A stretch of DNA of 64,000 nucleotides from a virus (Duplodnaviria; Heunggongvirae; Uroviricota; Caudoviricetes). A program made the translations under genes and the position numbers. The notes under the pieces are model-generated. The model did not search any database and was not told the origin of the DNA. It was given only the letters and a program-made list of their open reading frames with translations. The stretch spans positions 1-64,000 of IMG/VR virus record IMGVR_UViG_2513237141_000003. The stretch is one strand, 5' to 3'. Each line of letters starts with the position of its first letter. Within the stretch, counting starts at the first letter, position 1. Below are positions 3,270 to 47,906 of the stretch, piece by piece.

Positions 3270-3304
3270 GGTCTCCTTGTTGGCACCTCCTGCGAAGAGG
3301 CGCT
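3270..3304 (-). promoter_or_regulatory. 5'-UTR hairpin (UUCGCAG loop) + CAAGGAGACC SD cassette
   Basis: ggtctccttg + cctcCTGCGAAgagg; upstream of the RlmN-like gene. Confidence 0.6.
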
Positions 3305-3311
3305 GATGGAA

Positions 3312-3413
3312 TTAGTGCCAGATCAGAATAGCCGCAACGATCGCCACGCCGGTCACGATCAAGTAGCGGATCAGAATCTGCATGTTGCGATGGTTGATCT
3401 CTTGATAGTTCAT
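3312..3413 (-). CDS. 33-aa hydrophobic micro-peptide (MNYQEINHRNMQILIRYLIVTGVAIVAAILIWH)
   Basis: ATG 8 nt after the conserved SD 10-mer; own hairpin cassette; one TM helix; not in ORF track (<60 aa). Confidence 0.35.
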   Translation of the reverse strand: MNYQEINHRNMQILIRYLIVTGVAIVAAILIWH

Positions 3414-3418
3414 GGACG

Positions 3419-3455
3419 GGTCTCCTTGTGGGAAGACCCCGCTGCGAACGGGGTC
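3419..3455 (-). promoter_or_regulatory. hairpin-SD cassette
   Basis: ggtctccttg + gaccccgCTGCGAAcggggtc; micro-peptide gene. Confidence 0.6.
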
Positions 3456-3464
3456 GGGGATTGT

Positions 3465-4661
3465 TTACTTGCTAGGCGCCACTGCTTTGCTCAGCCAGTC
3501 GCTGATGCTGGATGGCAGCCACCACAGCGAGACGCTAGAGGGCAGGGCGCCATTCCACTTGTTGGCGATGGTGCGAGTACCCTCGGCGGTCGCAAGTGCT
3601 TGCAGCGTCGCGGTATAGGGCGCCATGGTCTTGGCCACCTCGATATCCTGGGAGGCGACATAGCGACGGTTGACGGCGTCCTGCACGTCCTTGTTGAACT
3701 CGAACGTGTCGGCCCAACCGATGAAGTCGAGCGTGATGCCGACCGACGCCATGTATTCGGTCACCGCTTTCTTGATGTCCTCCATGATCTTAGCCGCTTG
3801 CTTGTTGTTATCGTCAAGCGAGCGCGCGGAGACCTGATCACACACAAGCGCCTGCACGCGGGACCGCACCGGGCCGTCCATTACTTCGGACAGCGACTTG
3901 CCCCGGTAAACAGACGTGAACACGATTTCCGGGTTATTGCGATCTCCGGCGGGCGGATTAACGCCAAACCGAAAGAGGAACTTCGGCGCGTTCTCCTCAT
4001 AGACCGAGGCGCCGATCGCCACACCCACCGTGACGTCAAGGCCTTCGGAAGACTGGCACGGGAAGGATTGATCGCCGGCGGTGGAGCCGCGGTGAGGCGA
4101 CTTGACCCATTCGCGCGAGACCGGCGTACGGTCGACGACGATCAGGCGTCCCGCAGGAACATAGTAGTTCGACCATGCGCCCGAATTGGGCAGCTTGGTG
4201 TGCGGGATCTCGAAGCGCTTGGCAGCGATCTTGTGCTCGTTGAGATACTGTTCGGAGCCGAACGATGCCTGCGACGACTTGTTGTCGCCGACATCGGGTA
4301 TGAAGAACGCCGATTCGTTCGGGAGGATGAAGTAGTTCTCCGTATAGTCGGACTGGCTGTAATAGGCGGACGCGGGCTGCGGGACGCCCGCCAGCAAGAG
4401 CACGATCAGACTGGCGAACAGCGCGCGCAGCGGCTTCAGCCAGATCAGGAACAGCCCTGCCACGACGGCGATGCCGATCAGAAACATTGCGCCGTTGTAG
4501 GCGCGGAAGGCGCCTTGGGTCGCCAGATATGACAGGTCACTGGCCTCGAACTGTTTACCGGCGATCTGTCCGAGCGCGAGCGTCGCCGGAGTATTGAATA
4601 AGAATGATGCAAGCGCCGCGCCAGCCAAGAGGGCGAGCGTCAGGAAGATGCGGAACTTCAT
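3465..4661 (-). CDS. SPFH/band-7-like membrane protein
   Basis: 398 aa; two N-terminal TM helices; SPFH-like core; cassette upstream. Confidence 0.5.
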   Translation of the reverse strand: MKFRIFLTLALLAGAALASFLFNTPATLALGQIAGKQFEASDLSYLATQGAFRAYNGAMFLIGIAVVAGLFLIWLKPLRALFASLIVLLLAGVPQPASAYYSQSDYTENYFILPNESAFFIPDVGDNKSSQASFGSEQYLNEHKIAAKRFEIPHTKLPNSGAWSNYYVPAGRLIVVDRTPVSREWVKSPHRGSTAGDQSFPCQSSEGLDVTVGVAIGASVYEENAPKFLFRFGVNPPAGDRNNPEIVFTSVYRGKSLSEVMDGPVRSRVQALVCDQVSARSLDDNNKQAAKIMEDIKKAVTEYMASVGITLDFIGWADTFEFNKDVQDAVNRRYVASQDIEVAKTMAPYTATLQALATAEGTRTIANKWNGALPSSVSLWWLPSSISDWLSKAVAPSK

Positions 4662-4668
4662 GGGATGA

Positions 4669-4704
4669 GGTCTCCTTGTGGATAATGCCGCTGCGAACGG
4701 CGGT
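4669..4704 (-). promoter_or_regulatory. hairpin-SD cassette
   Basis: gccgCTGCGAAcggc; SPFH gene. Confidence 0.6.
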
Positions 4705-4880
4705 TAAGAAGCTTGTTGACGACCCTCGCGGCGGGCCTGCCAGATGATGGCTGCAATGATGCCAACGTTGAGAGCGTGCATGCTGAGGCTGGGCCATGAC
4801 GGGAACGCCGAGAAAGCCGTCATGACAACCGATCCGATCCCGAGCCAGGTCGAAGGCCTTGTATGGATATCAAAGTTCAT
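4704..4880 (-). CDS. 58-aa membrane protein
   Basis: MNFDIHTRPSTWLGIGSVVMTAF...; hydrophobic; intergenic position between SPFH and SBP genes. Confidence 0.35.
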   Translation of the reverse strand: MNFDIHTRPSTWLGIGSVVMTAFSAFPSWPSLSMHALNVGIIAAIIWQARREGRQQAS

Positions 4881-4982
4881 GGTCGCCCCTTGAATTTGTT
4901 GGGAGGCTTGCGGCGCCTCCCGTGCCGTTTACGCGACGGAACGCAGGTTGGTCGCCTCGCGCGAGAGGTGACGCATGGGGGA

Positions 4983-5864
4983 TTACTGAGGCTGAGCGAG
5001 CTTAGCGATCTCAGGCCTTGCCGCCTGGAAGGACCGAAGCAGGCCGTCGTAGGCGCTGTCGTTGGCATTGATCCAGTTGGTGTTGGCGACAAAGATCGCG
5101 TCCACCTGGATCGTGCCGATGGCCTTGGTGCCGTAGACGGTCCCCGAGGGCTGGATTCGCGGGTAGGTGCCAGCCGGGATCTCTCCATAGCTGTAGACGT
5201 ACTGGCCACGCGCATCCTTGGCGACCGTAGTCATGTCGCGGTCGTCGGTCCCGACCAGCACGACGTTGTCGCCGGCATTCGAGGCGTCGTTCTTCATGAA
5301 CGAGCTGTTGAGTGCCGCGATCACGAGGGCGCACTGGACCTGCGTCCCATCTGCAACGGCCTGTACGGCGCGGATGCCGGAACGGATGTCCGTGTTGATC
5401 TGGCCATAACGCTTCTTGTCGGCCAGGACGAACGCGTCCCATGTGGTGTGCGCGCCGGAGCCCTCGGGGCCGATCGCGACCGTCATGTCCTTGGTCAGGT
5501 TGACCATGCGGCCGAGATCAAGCTTGCGGTTGCAGATCATGTGCGCCTGCTCCTTGTAGAGCACTCCGGCGCGCTCGATCGCCGCGATCGCCTTGGCGTT
5601 GCGGTTCGAATAGACGAGCAGGGCGTCCGACTGCACAAAGGCTCCGTCACAGTCGCCGTTCGTCACCTTGTCGAGGTTGTCCAGCGAGCCCTTGGTCTCG
5701 ATCACATCGACCTGAACGCTGGTCGATTTTGACTTCAACATGTAGCCAGCCTTGTAATAGTTCAGCTGGCTGTTGCCGGTGCAGAGCTTGAAGCTGGCCG
5801 CTTCGGCAGAGCTTGCCGTTGCGATCAGCGCGAGCGCTGCGAGGATCAGGTAAGGCGTCTTCAT
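4983..5864 (-). CDS. secreted periplasmic substrate-binding-like protein (TAXI/PhnD-like fold suspected)
   Basis: 293 aa; signal peptide (ALALIATASSAEA); cassette upstream. Confidence 0.5.
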   Translation of the reverse strand: MKTPYLILAALALIATASSAEAASFKLCTGNSQLNYYKAGYMLKSKSTSVQVDVIETKGSLDNLDKVTNGDCDGAFVQSDALLVYSNRNAKAIAAIERAGVLYKEQAHMICNRKLDLGRMVNLTKDMTVAIGPEGSGAHTTWDAFVLADKKRYGQINTDIRSGIRAVQAVADGTQVQCALVIAALNSSFMKNDASNAGDNVVLVGTDDRDMTTVAKDARGQYVYSYGEIPAGTYPRIQPSGTVYGTKAIGTIQVDAIFVANTNWINANDSAYDGLLRSFQAARPEIAKLAQPQ

Positions 5865-5866
5865 GC

Positions 5867-5895
5867 GGTCTCCTTGTTGCCTCTCGCGAAGAGGG
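5867..5895 (-). promoter_or_regulatory. hairpin-SD cassette (loop TCGCGAA variant)
   Basis: SBP gene. Confidence 0.5.
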
Positions 5896-5909
5896 CGGTT
5901 GGTGGTGGT

Positions 5910-6152: not shown

Positions 6153-6703
6153 GGCACGAGGTCTCCTTGTGATGCGTCGCGAGGCGCAGGCGACGGAGGT
6201 GGCGCGATCTGTTTCAAAAACTCTGGCCAGATCACCTGCCAGAACCCGACGCATTGCGGGCTAGGTCGGTTTCGGATGACTTCATCGAAATCGTGACGAT
6301 AGGCGTGGCAGATGGGGCGAGAGTCGTAGACGTCCTCAACAAACAATTCGACGCTCTGCCGATTTTCGATGCGCTCCACATCATCCCACGCGTCTCGCGC
6401 TTCGACCTTGTCGACCGCGCCGTCGCGTCGGCGCTCCTTTATGTAGTCCTTCATGCCCTTGATGGTGGCGTGGAAATCGAACTCCATGTAGTCGCGACGT
6501 CCGATGGTCTTGCCCATGAAGTAGCCGAACTCGATGTCGGACAAGAACTCCTTCAGCGTCGCCGTGCCGATGTGCGACCAGCAATACGCATAGGTGCCGA
6601 ACGAGGTGTAGGCCGAGAACACACCCGTCTCCTCGTCGAGATAGATGAAGGCCCATTCGAGCTTGTGCGGGCCTGCGCCGCGGACGATGTAGCGATCAAC
6701 CAT
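6146..6703 (-). CDS. hypothetical protein
   Basis: start MVDRYIV; TAATG stop/start overlap with the upstream HNH gene. Confidence 0.55.
   Translation of the reverse strand: MVDRYIVRGAGPHKLEWAFIYLDEETGVFSAYTSFGTYAYCWSHIGTATLKEFLSDIEFGYFMGKTIGRRDYMEFDFHATIKGMKDYIKERRRDGAVDKVEARDAWDDVERIENRQSVELFVEDVYDSRPICHAYRHDFDEVIRNRPSPQCVGFWQVIWPEFLKQIAPPPSPAPRDASQGDLVPC
6160..6188 (-). promoter_or_regulatory. SD 10-mer + variant hairpin
   Basis: cgtcgc-gaggcgcag-gcgacg. Confidence 0.4.
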
Positions 6704-8823: not shown

Positions 8824-9309
8824 TCAGAACGGAATGTCGTCGTCCATGTCGTTGTGGCGAGAGCCGCCGCCGGACTGACGCGAGTTGCCACCGCCGCTGC
8901 GGCCACCGCCTCCGCCGCTATCCCCGCCACGGTCGCCGCCGCTGTTGCGGTTGTCACCACCGGTGTCGAGCATCGTCAGTGTCGAGTTGAAGCCTTGCAG
9001 TACCACCTCGGTGGTGTACTTCTCGGCGCCGCTCTGGTCGGTCCATTTGCGCGTCTGCAGCTGGCCCTCGACATAGACCTTGGCGCCTTTCTTCAGGTAC
9101 TGCTCGGCGATCTTGGCAAGGCCCTCATTGAAAATTACGACCCTGTGCCATTCGACTTTTTCGCGGCGCTCGCCGGAGTTTTTGTCGCGCCAGCTCTCGC
9201 TGGTGGCGATCGATAGATTGGCTATCGGGCGCCCATCCTGGGTCCGTCTAACTTCGGGGTCCTTGCCAAGATTGCCCACCAGAATCACTTTGTTCACGCT
9301 GCCAGCCAC
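8824..9309 (-). CDS. ssb: single-stranded DNA-binding protein
   Basis: OB-fold SSB sequence, Gly-rich tail, C-terminal DDDIPF; GTG start; cassette upstream. Confidence 0.9.
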
Positions 9310-9312
9310 GTC

Positions 9313-9345
9313 GGTCTCCTTGTCGTGCGGCCCTGCGAAGGCCGC
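9313..9345 (-). promoter_or_regulatory. hairpin-SD cassette
   Basis: gcggccCTGCGAAggccgc; ssb. Confidence 0.6.
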
Positions 9346-10810: not shown

Positions 10811-11833
10811 TTACTTGACCTTCACTTCCCGCAATGAGCGGAAGCTGTAGGCAGCGCGCTGCTGTTCCTTGACGTTGGTGACCTTGAGCGAGAGCTTGCG
10901 GCCGCCAGCAATCAGCGCGAACGTGGCGGCGCCGATCTTGGCCATGATCTCGGTGGAGATCTCATCGCGGCGCTTCTCGCTTGAGCTGATCACCTCGCCG
11001 AGCTTCTTGCGCTCGTCGAACAGGTCGGGGAGCAGGTTATCGCTCGACAAGTCGATGATGCTGCCGTCGTCGACCGGATAGAGCTTGCGGACCAGGTCGT
11101 GGTCGCGGGTCGGGTCGATTGCAGGTACGCCGCCCGCATCCAACAGGTCCCAGAAGCCCTTGACGGTTTCGAGTATCTTCTGCTCGGCCACGGGGTGGCG
11201 CACGAGCGGGATCATCTTCAGGTCCTCGCTGAAGGTGTCGATCACCCATGCCGCGACGTAGGGGTGGATCACCTGCTTGAACGCAATCGAAGCAAGCATG
11301 GTCTCGGCCAGCGTCTGCAGCTGGTAGCCAAGGGGGACGATGGGGTTCGTCCCCTCGCGGTCGCCGCCGAGCCAGTCAGCCACGAACACCGGCTTCGCCA
11401 CGACCTTGCCCTGGATCAGGATCAGGCCCGGACGCTCCGGATCGATCGCCATGGCGTCGGGGGTCGCGCCAAAGCGCAAGGAAGGCGCGCGCAAGTAGAC
11501 CTTGCCGGCGCGGATTTCCCAGGAGGGGTTTTCTTCCTTGATCGTGGCCCACAACGAGGGCTCGAAGCGGCGACCGCGCCGCAGAACGGGGGTATCGGCC
11601 TTCTGGCCGATCTGGCCGGTTTTATCAGCCCAGACCTCGCGCGGAGACCGGTAACCGACGCCAGCAATCGAAGCGACGTCGGACGCCGTGACGTCCTTCT
11701 GGCGCAGCTTCAGCCAGCCCTCCCGGTCTCTTACGGGATCGACCTTGTGGATCTCGACGTCGCCGAGGGACAGCTCGCGGACGATGCCCATGGCGACATC
11801 GCCGATGGACCGGAACGAATCAACTTCGCTCAA
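10811..11833 (-). CDS. YqaJ-like (lambda Exo-type) recombination exonuclease
   Basis: YqaJ N-terminal motif (VTASDVASIAGVGYRSPREVWADKTG); TTG start 5 nt after the cassette SD. Confidence 0.8.
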   Translation of the reverse strand: MSEVDSFRSIGDVAMGIVRELSLGDVEIHKVDPVRDREGWLKLRQKDVTASDVASIAGVGYRSPREVWADKTGQIGQKADTPVLRRGRRFEPSLWATIKEENPSWEIRAGKVYLRAPSLRFGATPDAMAIDPERPGLILIQGKVVAKPVFVADWLGGDREGTNPIVPLGYQLQTLAETMLASIAFKQVIHPYVAAWVIDTFSEDLKMIPLVRHPVAEQKILETVKGFWDLLDAGGVPAIDPTRDHDLVRKLYPVDDGSIIDLSSDNLLPDLFDERKKLGEVISSSEKRRDEISTEIMAKIGAATFALIAGGRKLSLKVTNVKEQQRAAYSFRSLREVKVK

Positions 11834-11838
11834 GGTTT

Positions 11839-11886
11839 GGTCTCCTTGCCCGCCCGCCGGAGAGCTGCACCGTCTGCGAAACGGTG
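11839..11886 (-). promoter_or_regulatory. hairpin-SD cassette
   Basis: caccgtCTGCGAAacggtg; exonuclease gene. Confidence 0.6.
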
Positions 11887-12292: not shown

Positions 12293-12910
12293 CTACTCCC
12301 AGGTGACGGGGGTCGCGAAGTAGGAGCCGATGATATCGCTGACCCAGACTATGCCGACATTTCGGATCGGCTCTATGCCGGCGGGGCCCGTTAGTCGGTA
12401 GCGATGGTCCTGCGTCTCCCTTGAGACCTCCCGCAGGAGGAGGGGGCGGTGGTTGGCACGCACGACCAGCATGTCGGTCCTGCCGTTGTGCTTGAAATCA
12501 GCGTGGACGAGCTCGCGCTGGTAGCTCTTGTCGTACAGGAGGTACTGGCCGAGCGAGGCGCCGGCATCGTCGGTCAGCTCGAGCGCCACGGTGTCGGCTG
12601 AGACCTCGACGCCGGTTGCAATCTTGCCTTTCGGTTCATCGAACATCTCGATCCGCAACCCCTTGCGGACGGCGCCGACTAGCGGCACCACGCCGGCCGT
12701 GAACCCGATCTCGGCGGGCGAGCAGCCGAAAGCCTTGGCAATGCGCTGCGCCCACGCCAGATCGATCGGACGCTGCCCCGTTTCCAGTTTTTGAATCTGT
12801 TGTTGCGAGGTGCCGGCCTTCCCGGCGACCGTTTCGCGTGACCAGCCGCGCTCATTTCGCATCTCAATGAGCCTCTCCGGCGGCGCTCGGTCCTTTCTAC
12901 GGTCCAGCAT
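12293..12910 (-). CDS. CI-like repressor (XRE HTH + C-terminal domain)
   Basis: HTH (LIEMRNERGWSRETVAGKAGTSQQQIQKLETGQR); divergent from the cro-like gene; operator repeats in the shared intergenic region. Confidence 0.7.
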   Translation of the reverse strand: MLDRRKDRAPPERLIEMRNERGWSRETVAGKAGTSQQQIQKLETGQRPIDLAWAQRIAKAFGCSPAEIGFTAGVVPLVGAVRKGLRIEMFDEPKGKIATGVEVSADTVALELTDDAGASLGQYLLYDKSYQRELVHADFKHNGRTDMLVVRANHRPLLLREVSRETQDHRYRLTGPAGIEPIRNVGIVWVSDIIGSYFATPVTWE

Positions 12911-14232: not shown

Positions 14233-14768
14233 ATAGGGTGCAGCACATATGGAGCGACGACAACATCGCCATGGTCCGCAATCTTGCGGACAAGGGTGAC
14301 AGTTCGGCCGAGATCGCCGCCAAGTTGAGCGCGGCCACAGCCCGGCGCGTCACGAAGAATGCGGTGGTCGGCATCTGCACGCGGAGGGGCATCCAGCTCA
14401 AGAACAAGAGTTTTGCGCCCGCAAAGCCGAAGCGGGAGCCGCAGCCAAGGTCTTATCTCGCGCCAAAGAATACTACCCCCGCACCCAAGGGGTTCGTGAG
14501 GGTGCCTACTCCGGTGATGTCGCCGGAGGCGACGCTGCCCATCACGAAATTTACTCCGGCTAAACCGTCGGAGACTAGCGTTTCGATTTACGAGCTTAAC
14601 TCTGATCTATGCCACTGGCCGTTGGGAGATTTCGCAGATCGCCCTCCGTACCGGTACTGCGGCGCGAGGGTCTTCGCAGGACCCTGGTGCCTCTGCCACT
14701 TCAGGCAGGCGACTGAAAACAAGGAGACCAGCCATGCCCAAGGGACATTCAAGGCCGAAGCAGCGTAG
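14229..14768 (+). CDS. gcrA: GcrA-like cell-cycle transcriptional regulator
   Basis: N-terminal W.DD...L..L...G.SA.EIAA.L....R.AV.GK..R.GL; C-terminal C.WP.GD.......CG......YC..H motif. Confidence 0.75.
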   Translation: MNRVQHIWSDDNIAMVRNLADKGDSSAEIAAKLSAATARRVTKNAVVGICTRRGIQLKNKSFAPAKPKREPQPRSYLAPKNTTPAPKGFVRVPTPVMSPEATLPITKFTPAKPSETSVSIYELNSDLCHWPLGDFADRPPYRYCGARVFAGPWCLCHFRQATENKETSHAQGTFKAEAA

Positions 14769-19149: not shown

Positions 19150-19152
19150 ACC

Positions 19153-33743: not shown

Positions 33744-33747
33744 TGTT

Positions 33748-34607: not shown

Positions 34608-34709
34608 TCAAAACAAGAGCCAGAACAGCAGCGCGACGAGGACGCCGATGACGCCGATGATAATCAGCAGCGCGTAAAGCGGCGCGCTATCCGACATGCG
34701 ATAGTTCAT
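34608..34709 (-). CDS. 33-aa hydrophobic micro-peptide (MNYRMSDSAPLYALLIIIGVIGVLVALLFWLLF)
   Basis: own cassette; same MNY start as the 3312-3413 peptide. Confidence 0.4.
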   Translation of the reverse strand: MNYRMSDSAPLYALLIIIGVIGVLVALLFWLLF

Positions 34710-34716
34710 GATGGTT

Positions 34717-34746
34717 GGTCTCCTTGTGATAGGGCCTGCGAAGCCC
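34717..34746 (-). promoter_or_regulatory. hairpin-SD cassette
   Basis: gggcCTGCGAAgccc; micro-peptide gene. Confidence 0.6.
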
Positions 34747-35149: not shown

Positions 35150-35156
35150 TGGCTTT

Positions 35157-35183
35157 GGTCTCCTTGGTGGGCCTGCGAAGCCC
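35157..35183 (-). promoter_or_regulatory. hairpin-SD cassette (hairpin identical to 34732-34746)
   Basis: gggcCTGCGAAgccc. Confidence 0.6.
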
Positions 35184-37742: not shown

Positions 37743-37747
37743 TGATT

Positions 37748-37779
37748 GGTCTCCTTGAGTTATCCCGCTGCGAACGGGG
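37748..37779 (-). promoter_or_regulatory. hairpin-SD cassette
   Basis: cccgCTGCGAAcggg; MTase gene. Confidence 0.6.
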
Positions 37780-37783: not shown

Positions 37784-38161
37784 TTAGGCAGTGAGGAAGG
37801 TCAGGCCCTTGTCGAGCGCTCCAACGAAGTCGGTCAGCGTGTACTTGATCGTGGTCGCCTTCTGCCGATGGAATTGATTGATGGAGCCGACGACACAGAA
37901 CTCGTCGGGGTAGGTCGCATCGGACCTGCTGCTTGTGTGCCAGTGGCCGAGATAGGCGCCGATCTTCTCGGAACCGTCGAAGTGCATCATGCACTGGTAT
38001 GGTCCGCAGATCAGTTCGAGGCCGATCTCGCGAGGGCCGTTGAACTCATGCAGCTCGATGGTCGCGCCGTGCTTGTCGGCGATGGTGCGAACGGCGTCGA
38101 GACACTGCTGGCGTCCCTTCTTCGTGGCGCACAGGCGGTCGTACTCATTGTGTCGTGACAT
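37784..38161 (-). CDS. hypothetical protein
   Basis: cassette upstream. Confidence 0.5.
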   Translation of the reverse strand: MSRHNEYDRLCATKKGRQQCLDAVRTIADKHGATIELHEFNGPREIGLELICGPYQCMMHFDGSEKIGAYLGHWHTSSRSDATYPDEFCVVGSINQFHRQKATTIKYTLTDFVGALDKGLTFLTA

Positions 38162-38165
38162 TGGT

Positions 38166-38211
38166 GGTCTCCTTGCGATGGTGGGGCGCGGCCGCTGCGA
38201 ACGGCCGCGCG
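38166..38211 (-). promoter_or_regulatory. hairpin-SD cassette
   Basis: gcgcggccgCTGCGAAcggccgcgc (9-bp stem). Confidence 0.6.
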
Positions 38212-38219: not shown

Positions 38220-38831
38220 TCAGCAGGTTGCGAAGTACTCTTCCGGATTGGCGATGCTGTAGATTCTGGTCTCATCGTTATTCCACGCCACCGTGATTGT
38301 GGCGCTGGCTATCTCCTCGACCTTGCCGGTCTGACGATAATGGTTTGGTGAGATCCCCTTCCAGCGCCAGACCTTGCTGTCCTTGCTGATGAACTGCTTC
38401 CACCCGCTGCCGACGTACCTGCCATCGTAGAGGCGCTCCAGATAGGCGCAGACGAGAGGGGTGATGTCGGTGAAGGCTTTCGAGAGATCATCAGCCGACA
38501 GATCGCCGCTCGCGACATCCTCGGCATCAACGCAGAGGCCATAGATTTCGCTCGCCGGGACCGGGTAGTCCTTGATGTCGCTATCCTCGGCATAATCGCC
38601 GATGATAGCGACGCGATCGCCGCCCCAGCGACCGACGATGTCGTCGGGATCATTTTCACCGAAATCGCCGCCGCCGCGCCCGTTAGACACGGCAAGCAGG
38701 ATGGTGAGCGCATCCTGTATGCCGCCGGGGCCGCCGTTGAGTTGCTCCCAGAGCTTGAGCCCGTTGCCAAGATCGTGCGGCATGAGAAACTCGCGCTTCG
38801 TGAGGTTTACAGTCTTATGGTACTGACCCAT
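38220..38831 (-). CDS. hypothetical protein
   Basis: double-hairpin cassette upstream. Confidence 0.55.
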   Translation of the reverse strand: MGQYHKTVNLTKREFLMPHDLGNGLKLWEQLNGGPGGIQDALTILLAVSNGRGGGDFGENDPDDIVGRWGGDRVAIIGDYAEDSDIKDYPVPASEIYGLCVDAEDVASGDLSADDLSKAFTDITPLVCAYLERLYDGRYVGSGWKQFISKDSKVWRWKGISPNHYRQTGKVEEIASATITVAWNNDETRIYSIANPEEYFATC

Positions 38832-38834
38832 GGT

Positions 38835-38915
38835 TGGTCTCCTTGGTGTGATCCCGGCTGCGACCGGGGAGGGGGAGTGAAACCACGCGACGGCCTGCGA
38901 AACCGTCGCGCGGGT
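38835..38915 (-). promoter_or_regulatory. hairpin-SD cassette with two tandem hairpins
   Basis: cccggCTGCGACcggg and cgacggcCTGCGAAaccgtcg. Confidence 0.55.
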
Positions 38916-39443: not shown

Positions 39444-40037
39444 TCAGGCCTCCAGACGCCAGAAGGCGTCGCTGTTGATCGATGGGGCGGGATACATGTC
39501 GGGGCGCGAGGCCTCGACTTCGGCGGCGAATGCATCGTTGAGGCGAGCGTTGATCTCGTCCGCCAATTCGTCGGCGACCTCGACGTGATAGTCGTGGCAA
39601 TCGCTCTCGATGCCCCAGAGCGACTCCTGCTCGTCGCTCTTGACCTCCTCGATGATGATGCCGACGTAGGACCAGTCATCGTTGAGCCAGCCGGCGAGGT
39701 ATTGAAAGTCCTGCTCGACGGCCTCACGGACGATCTGCTTGCGTGAGGGCTTGCGACCGAGCTTGCGTTCCAGCTTGGCAAGGTCTTTCTCGCCAAGGCC
39801 CCAGCCGTCGCGCTTGGCGATGCGTGTCGCCTCCGCGAAATCGTAGAAGTAGGCGCCCCAGCGGGTGCGATGCAGGAGGCGCTCGCCCGGGGACTTGGCG
39901 TCGCCATAGTGATCCTCGCGCACCGGGCCATGGCAATCGTGCTCCTTCCATGGCGGCCCCATGCTATCATCGTGCACGGTCTTGAAGCGAAACTTGCGCC
40001 CGCCTCGTTCGAACACGTCTCCATCGAATAGGTTCAT
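39444..40037 (-). CDS. hypothetical protein
   Basis: cassette upstream. Confidence 0.55.
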   Translation of the reverse strand: MNLFDGDVFERGGRKFRFKTVHDDSMGPPWKEHDCHGPVREDHYGDAKSPGERLLHRTRWGAYFYDFAEATRIAKRDGWGLGEKDLAKLERKLGRKPSRKQIVREAVEQDFQYLAGWLNDDWSYVGIIIEEVKSDEQESLWGIESDCHDYHVEVADELADEINARLNDAFAAEVEASRPDMYPAPSINSDAFWRLEA

Positions 40038-40041
40038 GATT

Positions 40042-40091
40042 GGTCTCCTTGGTGGTGGGTGAAACCGCATCGCCGGCTCTGCGAAAGCCGG
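40042..40091 (-). promoter_or_regulatory. hairpin-SD cassette
   Basis: gccggctCTGCGAAagccggc. Confidence 0.6.
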
Positions 40092-40107
40092 CGCGCGGGG
40101 CGGTTCC

Positions 40108-40413: not shown

Positions 40414-40616
40414 CACACCTCCGCCTCGAAGTGCATCTCGGACAGGCGGATCGCTGTTGCGAAGTCGCCCGCCGGAACGGCATGACGCAGGTCCGTCAGG
40501 AGATCGGTCAGGACCTGAGACAGCGGCGCGCCGTCATCTCGTGTCTCGACACCGGGGATGCGCTCATAGGCTGCGAGCACGGCATTGCCGTTCCGCATGC
40601 GGTCGTGGTTCGACAT
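40413..40616 (-). CDS. hypothetical protein
   Basis: cassette upstream. Confidence 0.45.
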   Translation of the reverse strand: MSNHDRMRNGNAVLAAYERIPGVETRDDGAPLSQVLTDLLTDLRHAVPAGDFATAIRLSEMHFEAEV

Positions 40617-40623
40617 GATGGTT

Positions 40624-40666
40624 GGTCTCCTTGGATCGGGGAATAGCCCGCGCTGCGAACGCGGGC
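40624..40666 (-). promoter_or_regulatory. hairpin-SD cassette
   Basis: cccgcgCTGCGAAcgcggg. Confidence 0.6.
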
Positions 40667-40680: not shown

Positions 40681-41382
40681 CTACTCCGCCGCCTGGGCGA
40701 TCGGCTCACGCCGCACGAACCAGCTCGGCAGGTGTGGCGTCTCCTTCTGCTTGAAGTCGACGGGCATCAGGATGCCGAAGGCGAAGTCGCAAGCCGGGAA
40801 CAGGATCAGCGCAGGCGATGTCTCCGGCTTGTGCTCGGCGGAGCAGAGGATGCGCAATGCGTCCTTGCGGTCGCGGTTGTAATCAACCCGCGGCGGCTTC
40901 CAGCCGGTGTGCAGAGCAAGCTCGCGCGCCATCTGGGTGAAGGAAGCGAGGTGCTCGGCCTGGAACGCCGGGGCCCCGACATCTTTGAAAGCCAGCGGCA
41001 CCACGCGCCGGTAGTCGGGATAGGTGCCATCGACCCGCACGCCGTCCACGACGGCTACCCGCTTGAAGCTGGTCTCGGCCGCAGGGTCGTCGCCCTCATA
41101 CAGCGTGGCCGAGTTCTCGCCGGTGCCGATCTGGACCACGCGATAGAAGCCGGGCTTGCTCTTGCACTGCTTGAGCATATCGCCGAGGTTGACGATGGCC
41201 TTCTCGTCGGCCTTGCCGTGCTCGTCGTGGATCGAGACGAGGCGGGTGCCGTCGGTGGCGGTCAGGGTGACGCCGCGCCACGGGTGCGGCTCGACGAACA
41301 CGCCTTGCAGGTAGTAGCGGGTCTCCTCACCGGAGGCGCAGGCGAAGGCGATACGAAACAGGTTCGCATTGAAGCGTAGCAT
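40681..41382 (-). CDS. DnaN (beta sliding clamp)-like domain protein
   Basis: N-terminal LRFNANLFRIAFACASGEETRYYLQGVFVEP...LTATDGTRL resembles the clamp domain I signature; shorter than full DnaN. Confidence 0.5.
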   Translation of the reverse strand: MLRFNANLFRIAFACASGEETRYYLQGVFVEPHPWRGVTLTATDGTRLVSIHDEHGKADEKAIVNLGDMLKQCKSKPGFYRVVQIGTGENSATLYEGDDPAAETSFKRVAVVDGVRVDGTYPDYRRVVPLAFKDVGAPAFQAEHLASFTQMARELALHTGWKPPRVDYNRDRKDALRILCSAEHKPETSPALILFPACDFAFGILMPVDFKQKETPHLPSWFVRREPIAQAAE

Positions 41383-41385
41383 GGT

Positions 41386-41417
41386 GGTCTCCTTGTGATC
41401 CGCTCTGCGAAAGCGGT
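41386..41417 (-). promoter_or_regulatory. hairpin-SD cassette
   Basis: ccgctCTGCGAAagcgg; clamp-like gene. Confidence 0.6.
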
Positions 41418-41748: not shown

Positions 41749-42012
41749 CTATCCGGTGATCCAGTTGAAGAAAGCGGTTCCGACGATGATGCCGAGGGCG
41801 ACGTGCCCGACGGCAAAGCAGATTGCCTCGATCGGAGAGGTGGAGATGGTCTGGTCAAGCCAGAGGCGAATGCCGATCGGCTCGGGATCGCGCGCCAGCG
41901 ATTGCGGGGGCAGGGGATAGAGCCGGTGATCCTCGGCGGGGCGCGCGGGGAAGGGGTACTTGCTGGTCAGGACGATGTCACCGTCGATGACGGTATAGGC
42001 GTGATGCTTCAT
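41749..42012 (-). CDS. hypothetical protein
   Basis: cassette upstream. Confidence 0.45.
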   Translation of the reverse strand: MKHHAYTVIDGDIVLTSKYPFPARPAEDHRLYPLPPQSLARDPEPIGIRLWLDQTISTSPIEAICFAVGHVALGIIVGTAFFNWITG

Positions 42013-42016
42013 TGGT

Positions 42017-42053
42017 GGTCTCCTTGGAATGGGGCCCGCACTGCGAATGCGGT
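42017..42053 (-). promoter_or_regulatory. hairpin-SD cassette
   Basis: ccgcaCTGCGAAtgcgg. Confidence 0.6.
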
Positions 42054-43177: not shown

Positions 43178-43339
43178 TCAGTCGACTTCGAGAATGATCG
43201 GCTCTCGCGAGGCGGCGACGCTGAGCTTGAACAGCTCGGCATCGCTGTAGCGGATGAAGCGTCGGCTGGTGGCCAGGACGTAGTGCGTGCCGCTCTTGGC
43301 GCGGCACAGCACCATGTAGACAGCGCTGGTCTTAGCCAT
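43178..43339 (-). CDS. hypothetical protein (53 aa)
   Basis: coupled. Confidence 0.35.
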   Translation of the reverse strand: MAKTSAVYMVLCRAKSGTHYVLATSRRFIRYSDAELFKLSVAASREPIILEVD

Positions 43340-43556: not shown

Positions 43557-43795
43557 CAGAGCACCTCGTACTCTGAGATGTCATAGTAGCAGTGCGCCTC
43601 GCCGTATTCGTCGGCCAGCAACTCCACTGCCGCGGCCATCTCCTGCTCGGTTGAGACGAGTGGCCTCCCTTTGTCTTGTTGCATGATGTTGACGCACACC
43701 ATGGCCTCGGCGACCGCCTTCTCGCGTGTGGCGCACACCTTGATGATGATTCCGGGCACCTCGTAGTGCTCGGCCTGCATGAGGTAAACTTTCAT
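43556..43795 (-). CDS. hypothetical protein
   Basis: cassette upstream. Confidence 0.5.
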   Translation of the reverse strand: MKVYLMQAEHYEVPGIIIKVCATREKAVAEAMVCVNIMQQDKGRPLVSTEQEMAAAVELLADEYGEAHCYYDISEYEVL

Positions 43796-43799
43796 TGAT

Positions 43800-43832
43800 G
43801 GTCTCCTTGGTGGTGCCGTCTGCGAAACGGCG
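43800..43832 (-). promoter_or_regulatory. hairpin-SD cassette
   Basis: gccgtCTGCGAAacggc. Confidence 0.6.
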
Positions 43833-44607: not shown

Positions 44608-44955
44608 TCAGGCCTCCACGCAGTCGGCGATGGCGCGGTCTAGGACCTTAAGGACGTTCGCGTGCCGATCTGCTAGCGGCCGCATGCTGGCGTATTCGTC
44701 GTTAACCCGCATCGGGCTCAAGCCGAAAAGCGCTTCGGATGCCGCCCCGATCGCATGTTCGGCGCCCCAGCTCGAGCCGCCTCCGTCAAGTCGATTGATA
44801 CGGTCCACGGCGCCCAGCAGGCACCACGCGCACGCTCTCTCGCTCTCCGGTGCGACATGCTCGCCATCGTCGTCGATGGCGTAGGTGCCCTGGGTCCAGT
44901 GTGCGATATCAGCGAGCAGCGTGCGGGTTTCGATCAGAATTTGTTTGATATTCAT
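44608..44955 (-). CDS. hypothetical protein
   Basis: cassette upstream. Confidence 0.5.
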   Translation of the reverse strand: MNIKQILIETRTLLADIAHWTQGTYAIDDDGEHVAPESERACAWCLLGAVDRINRLDGGGSSWGAEHAIGAASEALFGLSPMRVNDEYASMRPLADRHANVLKVLDRAIADCVEA

Positions 44956-44961
44956 GGCTTT

Positions 44962-44997
44962 GGTCTCCTTGGGAAGGGGCCGCCTGCGAAGCGGCCT
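44962..44997 (-). promoter_or_regulatory. hairpin-SD cassette
   Basis: ggccgcCTGCGAAgcggcc. Confidence 0.6.
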
Positions 44998-45369: not shown

Positions 45370-45735
45370 TCAGTACCCCGCCCAATCACGCAGCGCACCG
45401 AACGAGCCGCCCCAGATCACCCGGTTGGTGTAGGACCGTCCGCGGTAGGTGAAGCGGTCGTAGACGAACAACACGCCATCGGCCGTGGCGTCATCGAACC
45501 AGTCGTGCGAGCGGGCCCAGGCGATCTGGTCGCGGGTGAGCTTTGTGCCGTGCTCGATCGAGGAGGCGGCCTTGACGAGCTCGTCCATCGGCAAGAGCTT
45601 GACCATCTCCTGCTCAAGGCGGGCGATCTCGGCCCATTGCTGGCCGGTCTCGGCGGTGCGCTTGAGGAACTCGATCCGCTCCTCGAAGGCTGAAATCTGG
45701 TCCTCGATCGAGAGGACCGGTGCGTCGAATGTCAT
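45370..45735 (-). CDS. hypothetical protein
   Basis: cassette upstream. Confidence 0.5.
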   Translation of the reverse strand: MTFDAPVLSIEDQISAFEERIEFLKRTAETGQQWAEIARLEQEMVKLLPMDELVKAASSIEHGTKLTRDQIAWARSHDWFDDATADGVLFVYDRFTYRGRSYTNRVIWGGSFGALRDWAGY

Positions 45736-45739
45736 TGCT

Positions 45740-45780
45740 GGTCTCCTTGGGTGTGGGGTTGAGCCTGACTGCGATCAGGT
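45740..45780 (-). promoter_or_regulatory. hairpin-SD cassette (loop CTGCGAT)
   Basis: cctgaCTGCGATcagg. Confidence 0.5.
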
Positions 45781-46152: not shown

Positions 46153-46221
46153 TCACTTCTTGCCGTTGCGGTAGGAAGCGAGTTCGAGCTTGCGGAGGAG
46201 GATGATGACTTTCTTGGACAT
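46153..46221 (-). CDS. 22-aa basic micro-peptide (MSKKVIILLRKLELASYRNGKK)
   Basis: dedicated cassette; its stop lies in the next gene's SD. Confidence 0.35.
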   Translation of the reverse strand: MSKKVIILLRKLELASYRNGKK

Positions 46222-46223
46222 GG

Positions 46224-46258
46224 TGGTCTCCTTGGGGTTGAACCGTCTGCGAAACGGT
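46224..46258 (-). promoter_or_regulatory. hairpin-SD cassette
   Basis: accgtCTGCGAAacggt; 22-aa peptide gene. Confidence 0.6.
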
Positions 46259-46328: not shown

Positions 46329-46634
46329 TCAGTCGCGAACCGGCCAGCCGCGCTCGGCGGCGGCGTGCTTGGCGAGGGCGATGTGATAGGGCGTGACCCC
46401 CTTGCGCTGCTCGAAGCATTCGAGCAGCGTCACGCCCTCGGCCGGCGTGTGCAGGTGTCCGCGCTCTTTCGTCACGGCGACGGGCCAAGTATCGGCGATG
46501 CCGACAACCTTCTCGCTCTCGATCACGAGGATGTCGCCGGTCTCGACTGGGTACTCGCCGTCGAAGGCGTAGTGCACTCCGGTCTGGCAGGCATCGTATG
46601 CGTCGCCGGTCGTGCGGAAGGTGTGGGTGCTCAT
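46329..46634 (-). CDS. hypothetical protein
   Basis: cassette upstream. Confidence 0.5.
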   Translation of the reverse strand: MSTHTFRTTGDAYDACQTGVHYAFDGEYPVETGDILVIESEKVVGIADTWPVAVTKERGHLHTPAEGVTLLECFEQRKGVTPYHIALAKHAAAERGWPVRD

Positions 46635-46640
46635 GGTCGT

Positions 46641-46673
46641 GGTCTCCTTGGGGTTGGCCTGACTGCGATCAGG
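46641..46673 (-). promoter_or_regulatory. hairpin-SD cassette (loop CTGCGAT)
   Basis: gcctgaCTGCGATcaggc. Confidence 0.5.
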
Positions 46674-46878
46674 CGTTGAGCTTGGCGACTTCGGCGTCGA
46701 TGTGCGCCTGCGTTCCGCCGGTGGTGATGATCTTGGTGTTACCCTTGGCGTATTGTTCGCCATCGACGATGTCGTCGCGCTCCTGCTTGACGGTCTCAAG
46801 CTCCCAGTCGCCGAAGTGGATGCACCAGGGTTCGGTCTTGCTCTCGCGGACGAGGAGCGAGTGATACTTGCGGGACAT
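46669..46878 (-). CDS. hypothetical protein
   Basis: GGGAGG SD. Confidence 0.5.
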   Translation of the reverse strand: MSRKYHSLLVRESKTEPWCIHFGDWELETVKQERDDIVDGEQYAKGNTKIITTGGTQAHIDAEVAKLNA

Positions 46879-46889
46879 GATCGCCTCCC

Positions 46890-47243
46890 TCAGCCGCGAC
46901 CGTAGGCGCCGCGGCCGCCGCCCTTGCCCTTACGGCCCTTGCTGTTCGGGTACTTGGCCGCGTACTCGCGCTCCTCGCGCTCCCAGAGCTTGTCCTCGAC
47001 CTTCTCGTTTTGCTTGAGGATCGCGTCGTAGAGCTGATTCAGCTTGGTCCCCCAGGCGAAGTGGTAGCTGCAAACGCGGCGGGCGAGTTCCTCGCGCACG
47101 TCCAGGTCCTTGTAGGTCTTGCACGGCATCGCCTTGATCTTGAGCATCGTCTTGATCGCGGCCTGCTCTGCCGCCTTGGTCACGGCGTCGATGGAGGCGT
47201 CGGCTTTCTTCATGGCGGCGGTAACGGTCTTGAGGTTCAACAT
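46890..47243 (-). CDS. hypothetical protein
   Basis: SD 10-mer upstream. Confidence 0.5.
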   Translation of the reverse strand: MLNLKTVTAAMKKADASIDAVTKAAEQAAIKTMLKIKAMPCKTYKDLDVREELARRVCSYHFAWGTKLNQLYDAILKQNEKVEDKLWEREEREYAAKYPNSKGRKGKGGGRGAYGRG

Positions 47244-47271
47244 TGTTGGTCTCCTTGGGTGTGGGGTGAAA

Positions 47272-47577
47272 TCAGGCGGCGACGGGGATCAAGCCGAGGG
47301 TGATCGCCCGGAGGATGGCGCGCTCGTTCTCGCGGTTCTGGAAGTTGATGTAGGTCCGGGCGGAGCGGCGGTCGGCGAAGCGCTCGCCGTTGACCCAGAA
47401 GCCGACGGCTGATCCGTCAGTGCGCTCGATCATCCAGATGCCATCGTAGTTGATCGAGGCGGTGACGGCGTTGCGGATCGCGTCGGCTTGGTAAGCCCAG
47501 AGCGTCTGACGAACCTGCGTCTCGTTCTTGGCGGCGACGTTGCGGAGCGAATAGCGGGCATCGGTGTGGCGTTTCAT
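47272..47577 (-). CDS. hypothetical protein
   Basis: cassette upstream. Confidence 0.5.
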   Translation of the reverse strand: MKRHTDARYSLRNVAAKNETQVRQTLWAYQADAIRNAVTASINYDGIWMIERTDGSAVGFWVNGERFADRRSARTYINFQNRENERAILRAITLGLIPVAA

Positions 47578-47580
47578 GGT

Positions 47581-47631
47581 CGGTCTCCTTGGTTGCAGGC
47601 ATGAAAAAGGCCCCGCTGCGAACGGGGCCTA
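47581..47631 (-). promoter_or_regulatory. hairpin-SD cassette
   Basis: aggccccgCTGCGAAcggggcct. Confidence 0.6.
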
Positions 47632-47654
47632 GTTGGAAGGGCGGTGGCAGCAGA

Positions 47655-47843
47655 TCAGGCGCCGGTTTTGATCTCGGTGCCGTTGGCGAAGATCGAGACG
47701 ATCTTATCGCCGGAATGAACGAGAAACACGCCGTTATACCGGCGTGAGTGTTTGGCGGCATCCTCTTTGGCCTGCCGGATCGAGCGGCGCGGATGGGTTT
47801 CGAGTTCGCCATCGCCAGCGAGATGGCTGATTTTGATTTGCAT
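47655..47843 (-). CDS. hypothetical protein (first gene of the leftward block)
   Basis: cassette upstream; adjacent to the 1-kb control region. Confidence 0.5.
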   Translation of the reverse strand: MQIKISHLAGDGELETHPRRSIRQAKEDAAKHSRRYNGVFLVHSGDKIVSIFANGTEIKTGA

Positions 47844-47847
47844 GATC

Positions 47848-47906
47848 GGTCTCCTTGGTTTGAGGCGTAGAACGGTGCGGCGAAACATGCGCCGCACTGC
47901 GCTACG
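47848..47906 (-). promoter_or_regulatory. SD 10-mer + long nested palindrome
   Basis: ggcgtag..gtgcggcgaaacatgcgccgcac..ctacgcc. Confidence 0.45.

Follow-up and report, generated by a model that had tools for sequence, protein, structure and literature searches.

A repeated hairpin and extended Shine-Dalgarno cassette at the starts of uncoupled genes in a temperate phage

Cluster K mycobacteriophages carry start-associated sequences (SAS; Pope et al. 2011, PMC3203893), which are the closest known system to the element described here. Their function was still unexplained in 2024–2025 (PMC11373665, PMC12699233). About half of the SAS copies have an inverted repeat upstream, the extended SAS (ESAS), so the statement in a preliminary description of the present locus that SAS are not hairpin-based is too simple. 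The ESAS is now read as a promoter plus operator. Here we analyse a 64-kb window, the whole of positions 1 to 64,000 of IMG/VR record IMGVR_UViG_2513237141_000003, which is part of a temperate phage or prophage and in which only non-structural genes are present. Within it, a cassette composed of a hairpin with a constant loop and an extended Shine-Dalgarno (SD) block is repeated before genes on both strands. No description of this cassette was found in the literature consulted. We conclude with high confidence that it is a selected translation-start module.

The exact 10-mer CAAGGAGACC, which makes up most of the SD block, occurs 39 times in the window, against a mean of 0.15 and a maximum of 2 in dinucleotide shuffles. 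These copies comprise 35 on the minus strand and four on the plus strand (14720, 19401, 19864 and 20814). The preliminary description had counted about 38 cassette genes, 35 minus and three plus; the plus-strand 10-mer at 14720 had been missed. It had also called for a shuffle control, and this has now been run: TCGCAG lies at most 40 nt upstream of the 10-mer 34 times, compared with a mean of 0.003 in 300 dinucleotide shuffles, and the finding stands. Each of the 39 copies points the same way as the gene block around it, and 37 precede a start codon and an open reading frame (ORF) of 19 aa or more. A perfect Watson-Crick stem of 4–10 bp surrounds a (T)TCGCAG loop at 33 of the 39 sites, while three further sites (26613, 5876 and 6169) show imperfect stems or TCGCGA-type loops.

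In mRNA sense the order of parts is an upstream stop codon, a short A/C-rich stretch (often ccaccaccaac), the hairpin, a spacer, CAAGGAGACC and the start codon. The stem is G+C-rich and usually of 5 bp, and the leader around the SD block is A/C-rich and G-poor. The invariant loop core is TCGCAG, preceded by an unpaired T in 93% of copies; the variants first reported as CUCGCAG, GUCGCAG and AUCGCAG are actually 6-nt loops, in which the first base belongs to the stem. The 7-nt form may resemble an anticodon loop, as its second base is U, its sixth is a purine and the stem has 5 bp. The spacer between hairpin base and SD block measures 2–34 nt with a median of 6, rather than the 8–25 nt first given. 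The conserved SD block is likewise 11 nt long and not 10, reading C-AAGGAG-ACC-A with the final A present in 85% of copies and a preference for C two positions further on; that conservation reaches beyond pairing with 16S rRNA was nevertheless correctly recognised. The start codon follows the 10-mer by 2–7 nt in the window. Across 147 start-bearing sites in the window and other genomes, this distance is 3–7 nt at 139 and the start is ATG at 128, and the AAGGAG core lies 6–10 nt from the start codon. Predicted SD accessibility is 0.46 at cassettes compared to 0.37 at non-cassette genes (p = 0.004).

A codon-model gene map divides the window into four operon blocks, A to D (Table 1), with divergent non-coding control regions at about 13 kb and about 48 kb, and the cassette is used in three of these four early, non-structural operons. 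When same-strand gaps of at least 28 nt are considered, the 10-mer is found in 6 of 8 in block A, 3 of 6 in block B, 25 of 28 in block C and 0 of 8 in block D, the last agreeing with the earlier remark that the block beyond 49 kb has no cassette. Blocks A to C together thus carry the exact 10-mer in 34 of 42 such gaps, and it occurs in none of their tight or overlapping junctions. Genes at most 14 nt apart rely on plain GGAG or GAGG sites, or the stop codon of one overlaps the start codon of the next. This pattern indicates that the cassette marks the start of each translational unit that is uncoupled from the unit upstream.

The same module is found outside the window in a small number of places. 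An exact pattern scan of IMG/VR returned 111 stretches, and complete cassettes within IMG/VR occur only in three isolate-derived contigs of 105–126 kb (IMG taxa 2695421015, 2908764845 and 2922401287), referred to below as the relatives, and in the metagenomic contigs L008 and L017. The relatives show about 70–75% identity to the window in shared genes. The 87 singleton matches elsewhere, which serve as a negative control, lack the hairpin in 87 of 87 cases. In the relatives, long stretches such as 68.5 to 107.7 kb of contig 2695421015_000001 gave no pattern match in the scan, a hint that the cassette may be confined to the non-structural part of the genome, although these stretches were not themselves inspected. 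A stem-including pattern scan of metagenomes gave more multi-cassette fragments, all environmental. The phage type of the window is also represented by the fragments L121, L138, L118/L141 and L139. A second element type comprises L008, L017, L124, L126–L128, L136 and L143, with L008 and L017 encoding a large terminase subunit and ArdC-like anti-restriction, ParB-like and NusG-like proteins. Contigs of this second type share no detectable protein family with the window, but their loop and SD block are the same. The sole link between the two types is a zinc-ribbon ORF of about 55 aa that is common to L008 and relative A and absent from the window. In L008, L017, L124, L126–L128 and L136 an extra small hairpin often stands just upstream of the TTCGCAG hairpin (for example ggtgcgcttcgcacc and gatgcgcttaacgcatc), so some cassettes of the second type have tandem hairpins. 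No cassettes are present in L112, a distant contig with a 60%-identical ATPase, and an ATPase-based scan of genome contigs matched only distant metagenome-assembled genomes, all without cassettes. At the DNA level, megablast searches of deposited phages and of deposited plasmids gave no close match to the window, the contig of which comes from the Logan assembly of SRR3943698.

Comparison of copies shows what is conserved. The window and its relatives together hold 143 exact 10-mers. Their 101 distinct hairpins are built on 78 different stems, mostly of 5 bp (range 4–15 bp). A TCGCAG near an SD block is enclosed by a stem of at least 4 bp in 104 of 116 cases, compared to 23 of 212 elsewhere, and several of those 23 are hairpins adjoining variant SD sites. 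For 87 canonical copies stem covariation scores 0.78, whereas shuffles give 0.18 and slid registers 0.09–0.18. As copies had been selected for four pairs, the fifth pair is the first unbiased one, and it is paired in 84% of copies. Among 35 orthologous cassette pairs the stems differ in 23, and all of them pair perfectly in both genomes, as the preliminary description would lead one to expect. One compensatory example is gcggt/accgc against gcggc/gccgc. In another, a C-G pair is swapped for G-C (ggcCccgc/gcggGgcc against ggcGccgc/gcggCgcc) while the N-termini of the downstream proteins are identical in both genomes. The loop and SD block never change although their surroundings are saturated with change, a contrast that cannot be put down to recent common descent. 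Loop sequence, stem pairing and the whole SD block are all under selection, and the original proposal of a stereotyped, genome-wide element under selection is thus borne out by both counts and covariation.

In alphaproteobacteria, AGGAGG-type sequences are the pairing partner of the 16S rRNA 3′ end (PMC5711450). Pairing with the 10-mer is impossible beyond AAGGAG, since neither the leading C nor ACC-A can extend the helix. Complementarity of UCGCAG to CUGCGG in helix 45 of 16S rRNA was also considered and rejected, because in the ribosome this strand is already engaged in a helix and the geometry does not fit. The invariant, non-pairing bases of the SD block, together with the invariant loop, therefore call for a reader other than the anti-SD sequence.

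That the cassette is a strong, standardised ribosome-binding module, insulated from its surroundings, is well supported. We propose that it acts as a self-contained translation-initiation module for those genes of the long non-structural operons that are not translationally coupled to the gene upstream. Its G+C-rich clamp hairpin, ending about 6 nt before the SD block, would isolate the ribosome-binding site from upstream RNA and would at the same time display the invariant (U)UCGCAG loop. The start of this loop, UUCG, presumably fits the YUNR motif of U-turn loops, which present bases for recognition. A sequence-specific trans-acting factor would then read the loop together with the non-pairing SD flanks, such that some 35 genes would form one post-transcriptional regulon. 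This factor could bind the element as a translational operator or cut it as a processing site, and activation, repression and cleavage would all be possible outcomes. We consider the matter almost evenly poised, leaning slightly towards doubt, as to whether a trans-acting reader makes the cassette genes a regulon.

Several observations weigh against this proposal. No RNA-binding or RNase domain was found by Pfam or PHROGs among the roughly 90 window proteins scanned, and the gain in SD accessibility is only modest. There is an SD block without a hairpin at 47257, and in relative B a hairpin stands alone upstream of the RecE orthologue; as each part occurs without the other, a single bipartite reader is not required. 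The near-absence of G.U pairs is unusual for a long-selected RNA helix and would equally fit a DNA hairpin. The hairpins are also stable as single-stranded DNA, with a median of −5.6 kcal/mol under DNA energy parameters.

These last two points bear on an alternative in which the cassette works at the DNA level, either as a stoperator-like repressor site or as a single-stranded hairpin or cruciform used by a recombinase, an HUH nuclease or the replication machinery. The preliminary description had taken stem covariation as an argument for an RNA fold. Selection on pairing is confirmed, but the RNA identity does not follow from it, as the 646 stem pairs comprise 635 Watson-Crick, 4 G.T and 5 A.C or C.A pairs and so lack a G.U signature. 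DNA hairpins such as integron attC sites covary likewise. The stems being 98% Watson-Crick with G.T no commoner than A.C, their stability in single-stranded DNA and the coincidence of cassettes with mosaic junctions (see below) all suit a DNA element, and the stoperators of phage L5, as cited in PMC3203893, are likewise asymmetric, intergenic and co-oriented with transcription. Set against this are the AAGGAG core, ribosome-binding-site spacing and ATG bias of the 10-mer. Cassette orientation tracks gene direction on both strands, flipping with the genes rather than following one replication direction. Flank composition is asymmetric, with G at only 3–11%, on the sense strand only. A stem of 4–5 bp with a 7-nt loop is, we infer, too weak for cruciform extrusion, and no HUH or RAYT-type protein turned up among the scanned proteins. 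In ten long gaps, moreover, the hairpin lies 4–17 nt from the SD block and 49–206 nt from the upstream stop codon in 10 of 10 cases. Orientation that follows the gene, flanks that are G-poor in the sense strand only and a hairpin anchored to the SD block together favour RNA, and we regard a DNA-level function as very unlikely.

The probable operator of this phage is, furthermore, a different motif. TTGGTGCAA has five exact copies (11959, 12950, 13011, 24425 and 48352), all in non-coding control regions, with TTGGTGAAA variants adjoining them, and judged by sequence the CI-like repressor probably has its operator here. Between gene 23927–24313 and the orphan cassette described below there is one such copy, which suggests that this gene may have its own regulated promoter. 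The cassette 10-mer is absent from the interior of the control regions at 12.86–14.2 kb and 47.9–48.98 kb; the nearest copy, at 47848–47857, serves the first gene of block C as its SD block.

Other classes of signal could be set aside. A scan of 28–48 kb for the sigma-70-type promoter consensus gave two promoter-like sites (3.2 expected), none of them at a cassette. Judged by sequence, the cassette is not an intrinsic terminator either, since the 3′ flanks are A/C-rich and a T-tract follows only one of 33 cassette hairpins (47608–47630), a single exception to the earlier statement that the hairpins lack U-tracts and are not terminators. The cassette at 47575–47630 that contains this hairpin is terminator- or attenuator-like in sequence, and may perhaps be an attenuator near the start of the operon. 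With no promoters located at cassettes and only one T-tract hairpin, the cassettes would therefore lie inside long transcripts, and by sequence they are not promoters or terminators. A role as 3′-end protector of the upstream cistron is disfavoured because the hairpin position tracks the SD block and not the stop codon. Rfam at gathering thresholds detected only tRNAs, and at E values up to 1 in 24–48 kb it gave one chance-level match, to ClpQY_promoter (26 bits against a cut-off of 42). Repetitive extragenic palindromes and bacterial interspersed mosaic elements (REP/BIME), as well as miniature inverted-repeat transposable elements, have conserved arms, and REP also have a conserved GTAG head and an associated RAYT transposase. 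They do not fit, as the arms of the cassette are not conserved and no transposase-like protein was seen in an incomplete scan of the proteins. Lambda-type nut sites occur once per early operon, near its start, with a boxB of 5-bp stem and GNRA-like pentaloop preceded by boxA. Here, 25 cassettes lie in block C alone, the loop is (T)TCGCAG of 6–7 nt, and only A/C richness is conserved upstream.

A simpler account would do without any dedicated reader. The hairpin would act only in cis, insulating the ribosome-binding site and slowing mRNA decay, and the SD block would be the best site for the host; loop and SD flanks would stay constant for structural reasons or by gene conversion among copies. 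The element does have the position and properties of a ribosome-binding module, its A/C-rich flanks are predicted to be unstructured with SD accessibility raised, and the identical hairpins on some adjacent cassettes are compatible with gene conversion. However, seven loop bases and four non-pairing SD bases are invariant in more than 100 copies, spread over genomes of about 72% identity and an unrelated element, while stems and spacers are randomised, and the UUCGCAG loop is not known to have any special stability. Gene conversion would moreover homogenise the stems, yet there are 78 among 101 hairpins. We therefore find a purely cis-acting element unlikely.

Cleavage is a special case of the reader model that can be weighed separately. 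A Cas6/Csy4-like hairpin nuclease, or an SD nuclease of the RegB/S1 kind, would cut polycistronic RNA at the cassettes and so either give each unit a short, defined leader or switch the whole class off. GGAGACCAnC resembles the RegB/S1 target, a single-stranded 11-mer starting at GGA with conserved 3′ context (PMC1702504), though RegB targets are A-rich downstream where the cassette is A/C-rich. A conserved-loop hairpin at a fixed short upstream distance would suit a structure-guided nuclease, and the 24 kb of block C, with no internal sigma-70-type promoter, is probably transcribed as a single long RNA. The scanned window proteins showed no RNase domain, RegB-like, Cas6-like or other, however, and a processing site seems to us quite unlikely.

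Returning to a trans-acting reader in general, the preliminary description had allowed for one encoded by phage or host. A phage-encoded factor is not favoured, as the unrelated element type with the same cassette has no protein family in common with the window. This, together with the lack of an RNA-binding or RNase domain in the window, makes it more likely that the reader would be host-encoded or ribosome-associated, although our confidence in any particular identity is low. A host reader, if it exists, predicts cassettes or related hairpins at host genes. The DUF3310 protein encoded behind a cassette (20827–21225, plus strand; Pfam E = 3.7e-16) was considered as a candidate, this domain being present also in Adephagia gp51 and lactococcal SaV and having been speculatively linked to SAS-dependent translation. 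It was rejected as a universal partner because no homologue is present in the fetched, incomplete parts of the relatives, and the corresponding locus of relative B differs. The zinc-ribbon ORF of about 55 aa, which itself has only weak Lar-like matches, was rejected because it is absent from the window. The window also encodes small basic proteins, among them one whose tail is RGG-like, zinc-finger proteins and a 22-aa peptide, and these were set aside because there is no domain evidence for any of them. The size and charge of the 22-aa peptide are reminiscent of arginine-rich RNA-binding peptides. Taken further, the cassette could be a hairpin address tag, composed of a U-turn-type (U)UCGCAG loop and the SD block, that is shared across mobile elements of soil alphaproteobacteria and read by a host RNA-binding protein, nuclease or ribosome; we offer this broader idea as possible but doubtful.

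The cassettes are also associated with genome mosaicism. Identical hairpins occur on the neighbouring cassettes 32124/32715 and 34726/35166, the two pairs noticed at the outset, and on a third pair, 19864/20814. In a comparison of relatives B and C, 7 of 21 homology breakpoints fall on a cassette or a hairpin-only element, and 5 of the 21 (24%) are no more than 25 nt away from a cassette with the exact 10-mer, compared to 7% of random positions. Cassettes have been gained and lost at orthologous junctions. At 19.15–21.25 kb the flanks are conserved, but the three cassette-led genes that they enclose in the window are replaced in relative B by five others. In the window this hyperplastic locus (19150–21255) holds a weakly CHAP-like gene, a DHH-family gene and the DUF3310 gene, flanked by nearly identical cassettes; in relative B (2908764845_000006) it holds a metallophosphatase-like gene and four others. 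Recombination among copies, as first suggested, is in line with this link between cassettes and mosaicism, although the link is confounded with gene boundaries. It might then be argued that the cassettes are chiefly portable linkers for modular gene exchange, with recombination between copies shuffling modules. Single genes lying between identical hairpins, the sharing of the cassette by unrelated elements and the RecE-like, NinB and SSB recombination functions of the phage agree with this. Against it, breakpoints are expected at gene boundaries in any case, as gene-breaking recombinants are lost, and the proper control set, other intergenic positions, is too small to be of use. The conserved stretches of 7 and 11 nt, split by variable sequence, are short for homologous recombination, and neither the selection for stem pairing nor the ribosome-binding-site geometry is explained. 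A primary function in exchange is improbable, and modular shuffling is likely a by-product that is compatible with the reader model.

All cassettes and SD-block sites of the window are collected in Table 1 with the main landmarks.

Table 1. Landmarks of the window and sites carrying the cassette or its SD block, in order of position.
Position	Strand	Feature	Gene or remark
1–1173	minus	integrase	left end of window
1–12.9 kb	minus	block A	codon-model gene map
3262–3300	minus	cctcTTCGCAGgagg, 6 nt, CAAGGAGACC, ATG	314-aa radical SAM protein
3411–3455	minus	7-bp stem, TTCGCAG loop	33-aa membrane-type micro-ORF
4659–4701	minus	gccgTTCGCAGcggc	398-aa protein
5862–5905	minus	variant loop TTCGCGA, ccctcTTCGCGAgaggc	293-aa protein
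6155–6195	minus	SD block with variant hairpin tgcgCCTCGCGAcgca	80-aa ORF, GTG or TTG start
9307–9345	minus	6-bp stem	SSB gene; orthologous cassettes of three relatives have other stems
11831–11886	minus	6-bp stem nested in larger stem	RecE-like exonuclease; first cassette of block A
12293–12862		CI-like helix-turn-helix repressor	
14238–14768		GcrA-like regulator	
14.2–23.6 kb	plus	block B	codon-model gene map
14667–14736	plus	hairpin agggtcTTCGCAGgaccct, 34 nt, SD block, 19-aa ORF	inside 3′ end of GcrA-like gene; status uncertain
19378–19419	plus	cassette	139-aa protein
19842–19881	plus	acccgTTCGCAGcgggt	DHH-family protein
20792–20829	plus	hairpin identical to that at 19842	DUF3310 protein
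23.9–47.9 kb	minus	block C	codon-model gene map
24325–24342	minus	SD block without TCGCAG hairpin	5-aa mini-ORF upstream of 23927–24313
24482–24540	minus	10 Watson-Crick pairs (13 with G.T), 17 nt, CAAGGAGACCATCCC	orphan, no start codon
25755–25790	minus	6-nt loop, gccgcTCGCAGgcggc	321-aa protein
26139–26172	minus	6-nt loop, gccggTCGCAGccggc	70-aa protein
26598–26640	minus	imperfect hairpin gccgCTCGCAGCcggc	139-aa protein
27048–27082	minus	gccctTCGCAGagggc	135-aa protein
29037–29074	minus	gcggtTTCGCAGaccgc	283-aa protein; relative A orthologue gcggc/gccgc, a compensatory change
30957–31005	minus	8-bp stem	AAA ATPase
32107–32147	minus	ttggcgtTTCGCAGacgccaa	364-aa protein
32698–32734	minus	ggcgtTTCGCAGacgcc, core stem as at 32107	180-aa protein
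33741–33779	minus	6-nt loop	74-aa protein
34707–34746	minus	gggcTTCGCAGgccc	33-aa membrane-type micro-ORF
35147–35183	minus	hairpin identical to that at 34707	132-aa protein
37740–37778	minus	cassette	601-aa protein with DNA methyltransferase domain
38159–38210	minus	9-bp stem	125-aa protein
38829–38915	minus	double hairpin: TTCGCAG hairpin of up to 12 pairs (G.T allowed) just past upstream stop; cccggTCGCAGccggg; SD block	203-aa protein
40035–40093	minus	8-bp stem	197-aa protein
40614–40666	minus	7-bp stem	67-aa protein
41380–41416	minus	cassette	233-aa protein
42010–42052	minus	cassette	87-aa protein
43793–43831	minus	cassette	79-aa protein
44953–44996	minus	cassette	115-aa DUF6197 protein
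45733–45779	minus	upstream TGA stop within stem, cctgaTCGCAGtcagg	121-aa protein
46219–46258	minus	cassette	conserved 22-aa basic micro-protein
46632–46674	minus	TGA within stem	101-aa protein
47241–47257	minus	SD block only, no hairpin	117-aa protein with RGG-like tail
47575–47630	minus	8-bp hairpin (47608–47630) then TTTTT	101-aa protein; second cassette of block C; kept in relative A
47841–47906	minus	SD block with unrelated hairpin tgcggcgCATGTTTcgccgca	first gene of block C; 62-aa protein
48.9–64 kb	plus	block D	codon-model gene map

Some of these sites merit comment. The orphan cassette was correctly reported to lack an ORF. It represents a conserved subtype, with a long-stem TTCGCAG hairpin, a spacer of about 16–21 nt and CAAGGAGACC(A/T)TCCC without a start codon, that is also present in L002, L073, L017/L132, L143, L124 and L128 and so in both element types. 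Some 50 nt further downstream, L017 and L143 have another SD block, this one with a start codon. An A-run precedes the orphan hairpin in the window and in relative A, so that the opposite strand has the form of an intrinsic terminator directed towards block B, which is convergent. Close by, at 24310–24342 on the minus strand, an SD block leads into the mini-ORF MRLQR, which ends in a TGA that overlaps the ATG of the 128-aa gene 23927–24313, giving ATGA coupling via a leader peptide.

The micro-peptide genes noted at the outset as having cassettes of their own look real, both those of 33 aa and that of 22 aa. The 22-aa basic micro-protein (46153–46221, minus strand) is conserved in three genomes, as MSKKVIILLRKLELASYRNGKK, MSRKQIIALIRKLELQRYRNGK and MSYQQKLELLRKLALQQYRHGK. 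The 33-aa ORFs at 3312–3413 and 34608–34709 (both minus strand) begin with MNY and have a hydrophobic, transmembrane-like C-terminal segment, and are probably small membrane proteins. A further small conserved protein, encoded at 43178–43339 on the minus strand, has no Pfam match; its C-terminus, ...GLFCSK(S/G)CHD(D/S)YH, has an FCS/TRASH-like zinc motif, and orthologues are present in L013 and L109.

As to wider gene content, the GcrA-like regulator gene points to an alphaproteobacterial host. Primase-helicase, ThyX, DHH-family and DUF3310 proteins are encoded, as are an AAA ATPase, a protein carrying a DNA methyltransferase domain and, for recombination, SSB, NinB and a RecE-like exonuclease; the majority of the remaining genes belong to no family that could be recognised. 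Ten tRNA genes (Pro, Tyr, Gln, Ser, Phe, His, Cys, Asn, Thr and Met) lie at 56600–59840 on the plus strand, and among them sits the gene for a 434-aa RNA ligase (58445–59749), a combination typical of phage tRNA replacement or repair against anticodon nucleases. The divergent region between blocks C and D (47900–48980) is dense in short repeats: GGGCCC(C) occurs about 15–20 times, often as GGGCCCCAAAA, and TGTCCCC occurs 6–7 times on the plus strand at 48830–48980, with inverted GGGGACA(T) copies at 48745–48815. These repeats look like iterons or multiple operator sites, and the region may be, for example, an origin or master control region.

For practical purposes, the cassette can serve as an annotation aid, as it marks true start codons and real micro-genes such as that of the 22-aa peptide. 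If it makes translation independent of context, it would be a ready-made part, already optimised by nature, for operon expression in alphaproteobacteria, for example rhizobia and their relatives. The presence of the module in two unrelated element types suggests a host-side reader that nobody has described. Should the shared address tag be real, mobile elements would gain coordinated, context-independent translation of their accessory genes, and bacteria would have their own equivalent of the eukaryotic iron-responsive-element system, or a naturally evolved form of the cistron insulation for which synthetic biology uses Csy4.

Several known systems resemble the cassette in part. An invariant loop on a sequence-variable stem is seen in iron-responsive elements, in lambda boxB/N and in the coat-protein operators of MS2 and PP7, and iron-responsive elements also share with the cassette the placement of one 5′ untranslated region element near the translation start of many mRNAs. 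There is no similarity of sequence or loop to any of these hairpins, however, boxB occurs once per operon with boxA, and the coat-protein operators occur once per genome, so the likeness would be one of form only. Other formal analogues are the translational operators of T4 gene 43 and E. coli thrS. The stoperators of Cluster A phages (L5) are, like the cassette, many short, asymmetric, co-oriented intergenic sites in a temperate phage, but they match the operator of the early-promoter repressor and have no fixed relation to start codons, whereas the cassette is unlike the probable operator and has ribosome-binding-site geometry. In the T4 systems of RegB/S1 targets and RegA operators, a few dozen mRNAs of one temporal class are marked at the ribosome-binding site and controlled post-transcriptionally (PMC1702504, PMC3014915); those sites are degenerate and without a hairpin, and no RegB or RegA homologue was detected in the window. 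The PeSL (promoter-early stem-loop) elements of T4-type phages (Arbiol et al. 2010, PMC2839356) are short stem-loop cassettes repeated between small non-essential genes and are tied to insertion, deletion and replacement events between related genomes, as may also be true of the present cassette. They combine a strong sigma-70-type promoter with an effective terminator stem-loop, in contrast to our element, which has an SD block in the place of the promoter and no U-tract.

The resemblance to SAS goes further. Both are asymmetric conserved repeats with an SD core (AGGAG) that extend beyond the reach of 16S rRNA pairing, lie 3–7 bp from the start codon with a strong ATG bias, and are present in many copies with one orientation to transcription before non-structural genes with larger upstream gaps. 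In both cases the motif is absent from other phages, and C residues soon follow GGAG (GGAGCCC in SAS, GGAGACC in the cassette). Yet the consensus sequences are different, GGGATAGGAGCCC for SAS and CAAGGAGACCA for the cassette, and so are host phylum and phage lineage. The copy number of the cassette, 39 in 64 kb, is two to three times that of SAS (11–19 per genome). The upstream partner also differs, as ESAS has conserved, imperfect 17-bp arms, a variable spacer and a SigA-type promoter, while about 85% of cassette copies are coupled to a hairpin with variable arms, an invariant loop and no promoter. The cassette is thus not a member of the SAS family. It constitutes an independent and much denser second example of an SAS-like phenomenon, in a different bacterial phylum, and its hairpin provides a structural handle, with loop invariance and stem covariation offering mutable targets for experiment. 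If a trans-acting reader of this kind is real, the same mechanism might also explain the mycobacteriophage start-associated sequences, which have gone unexplained for 15 years.

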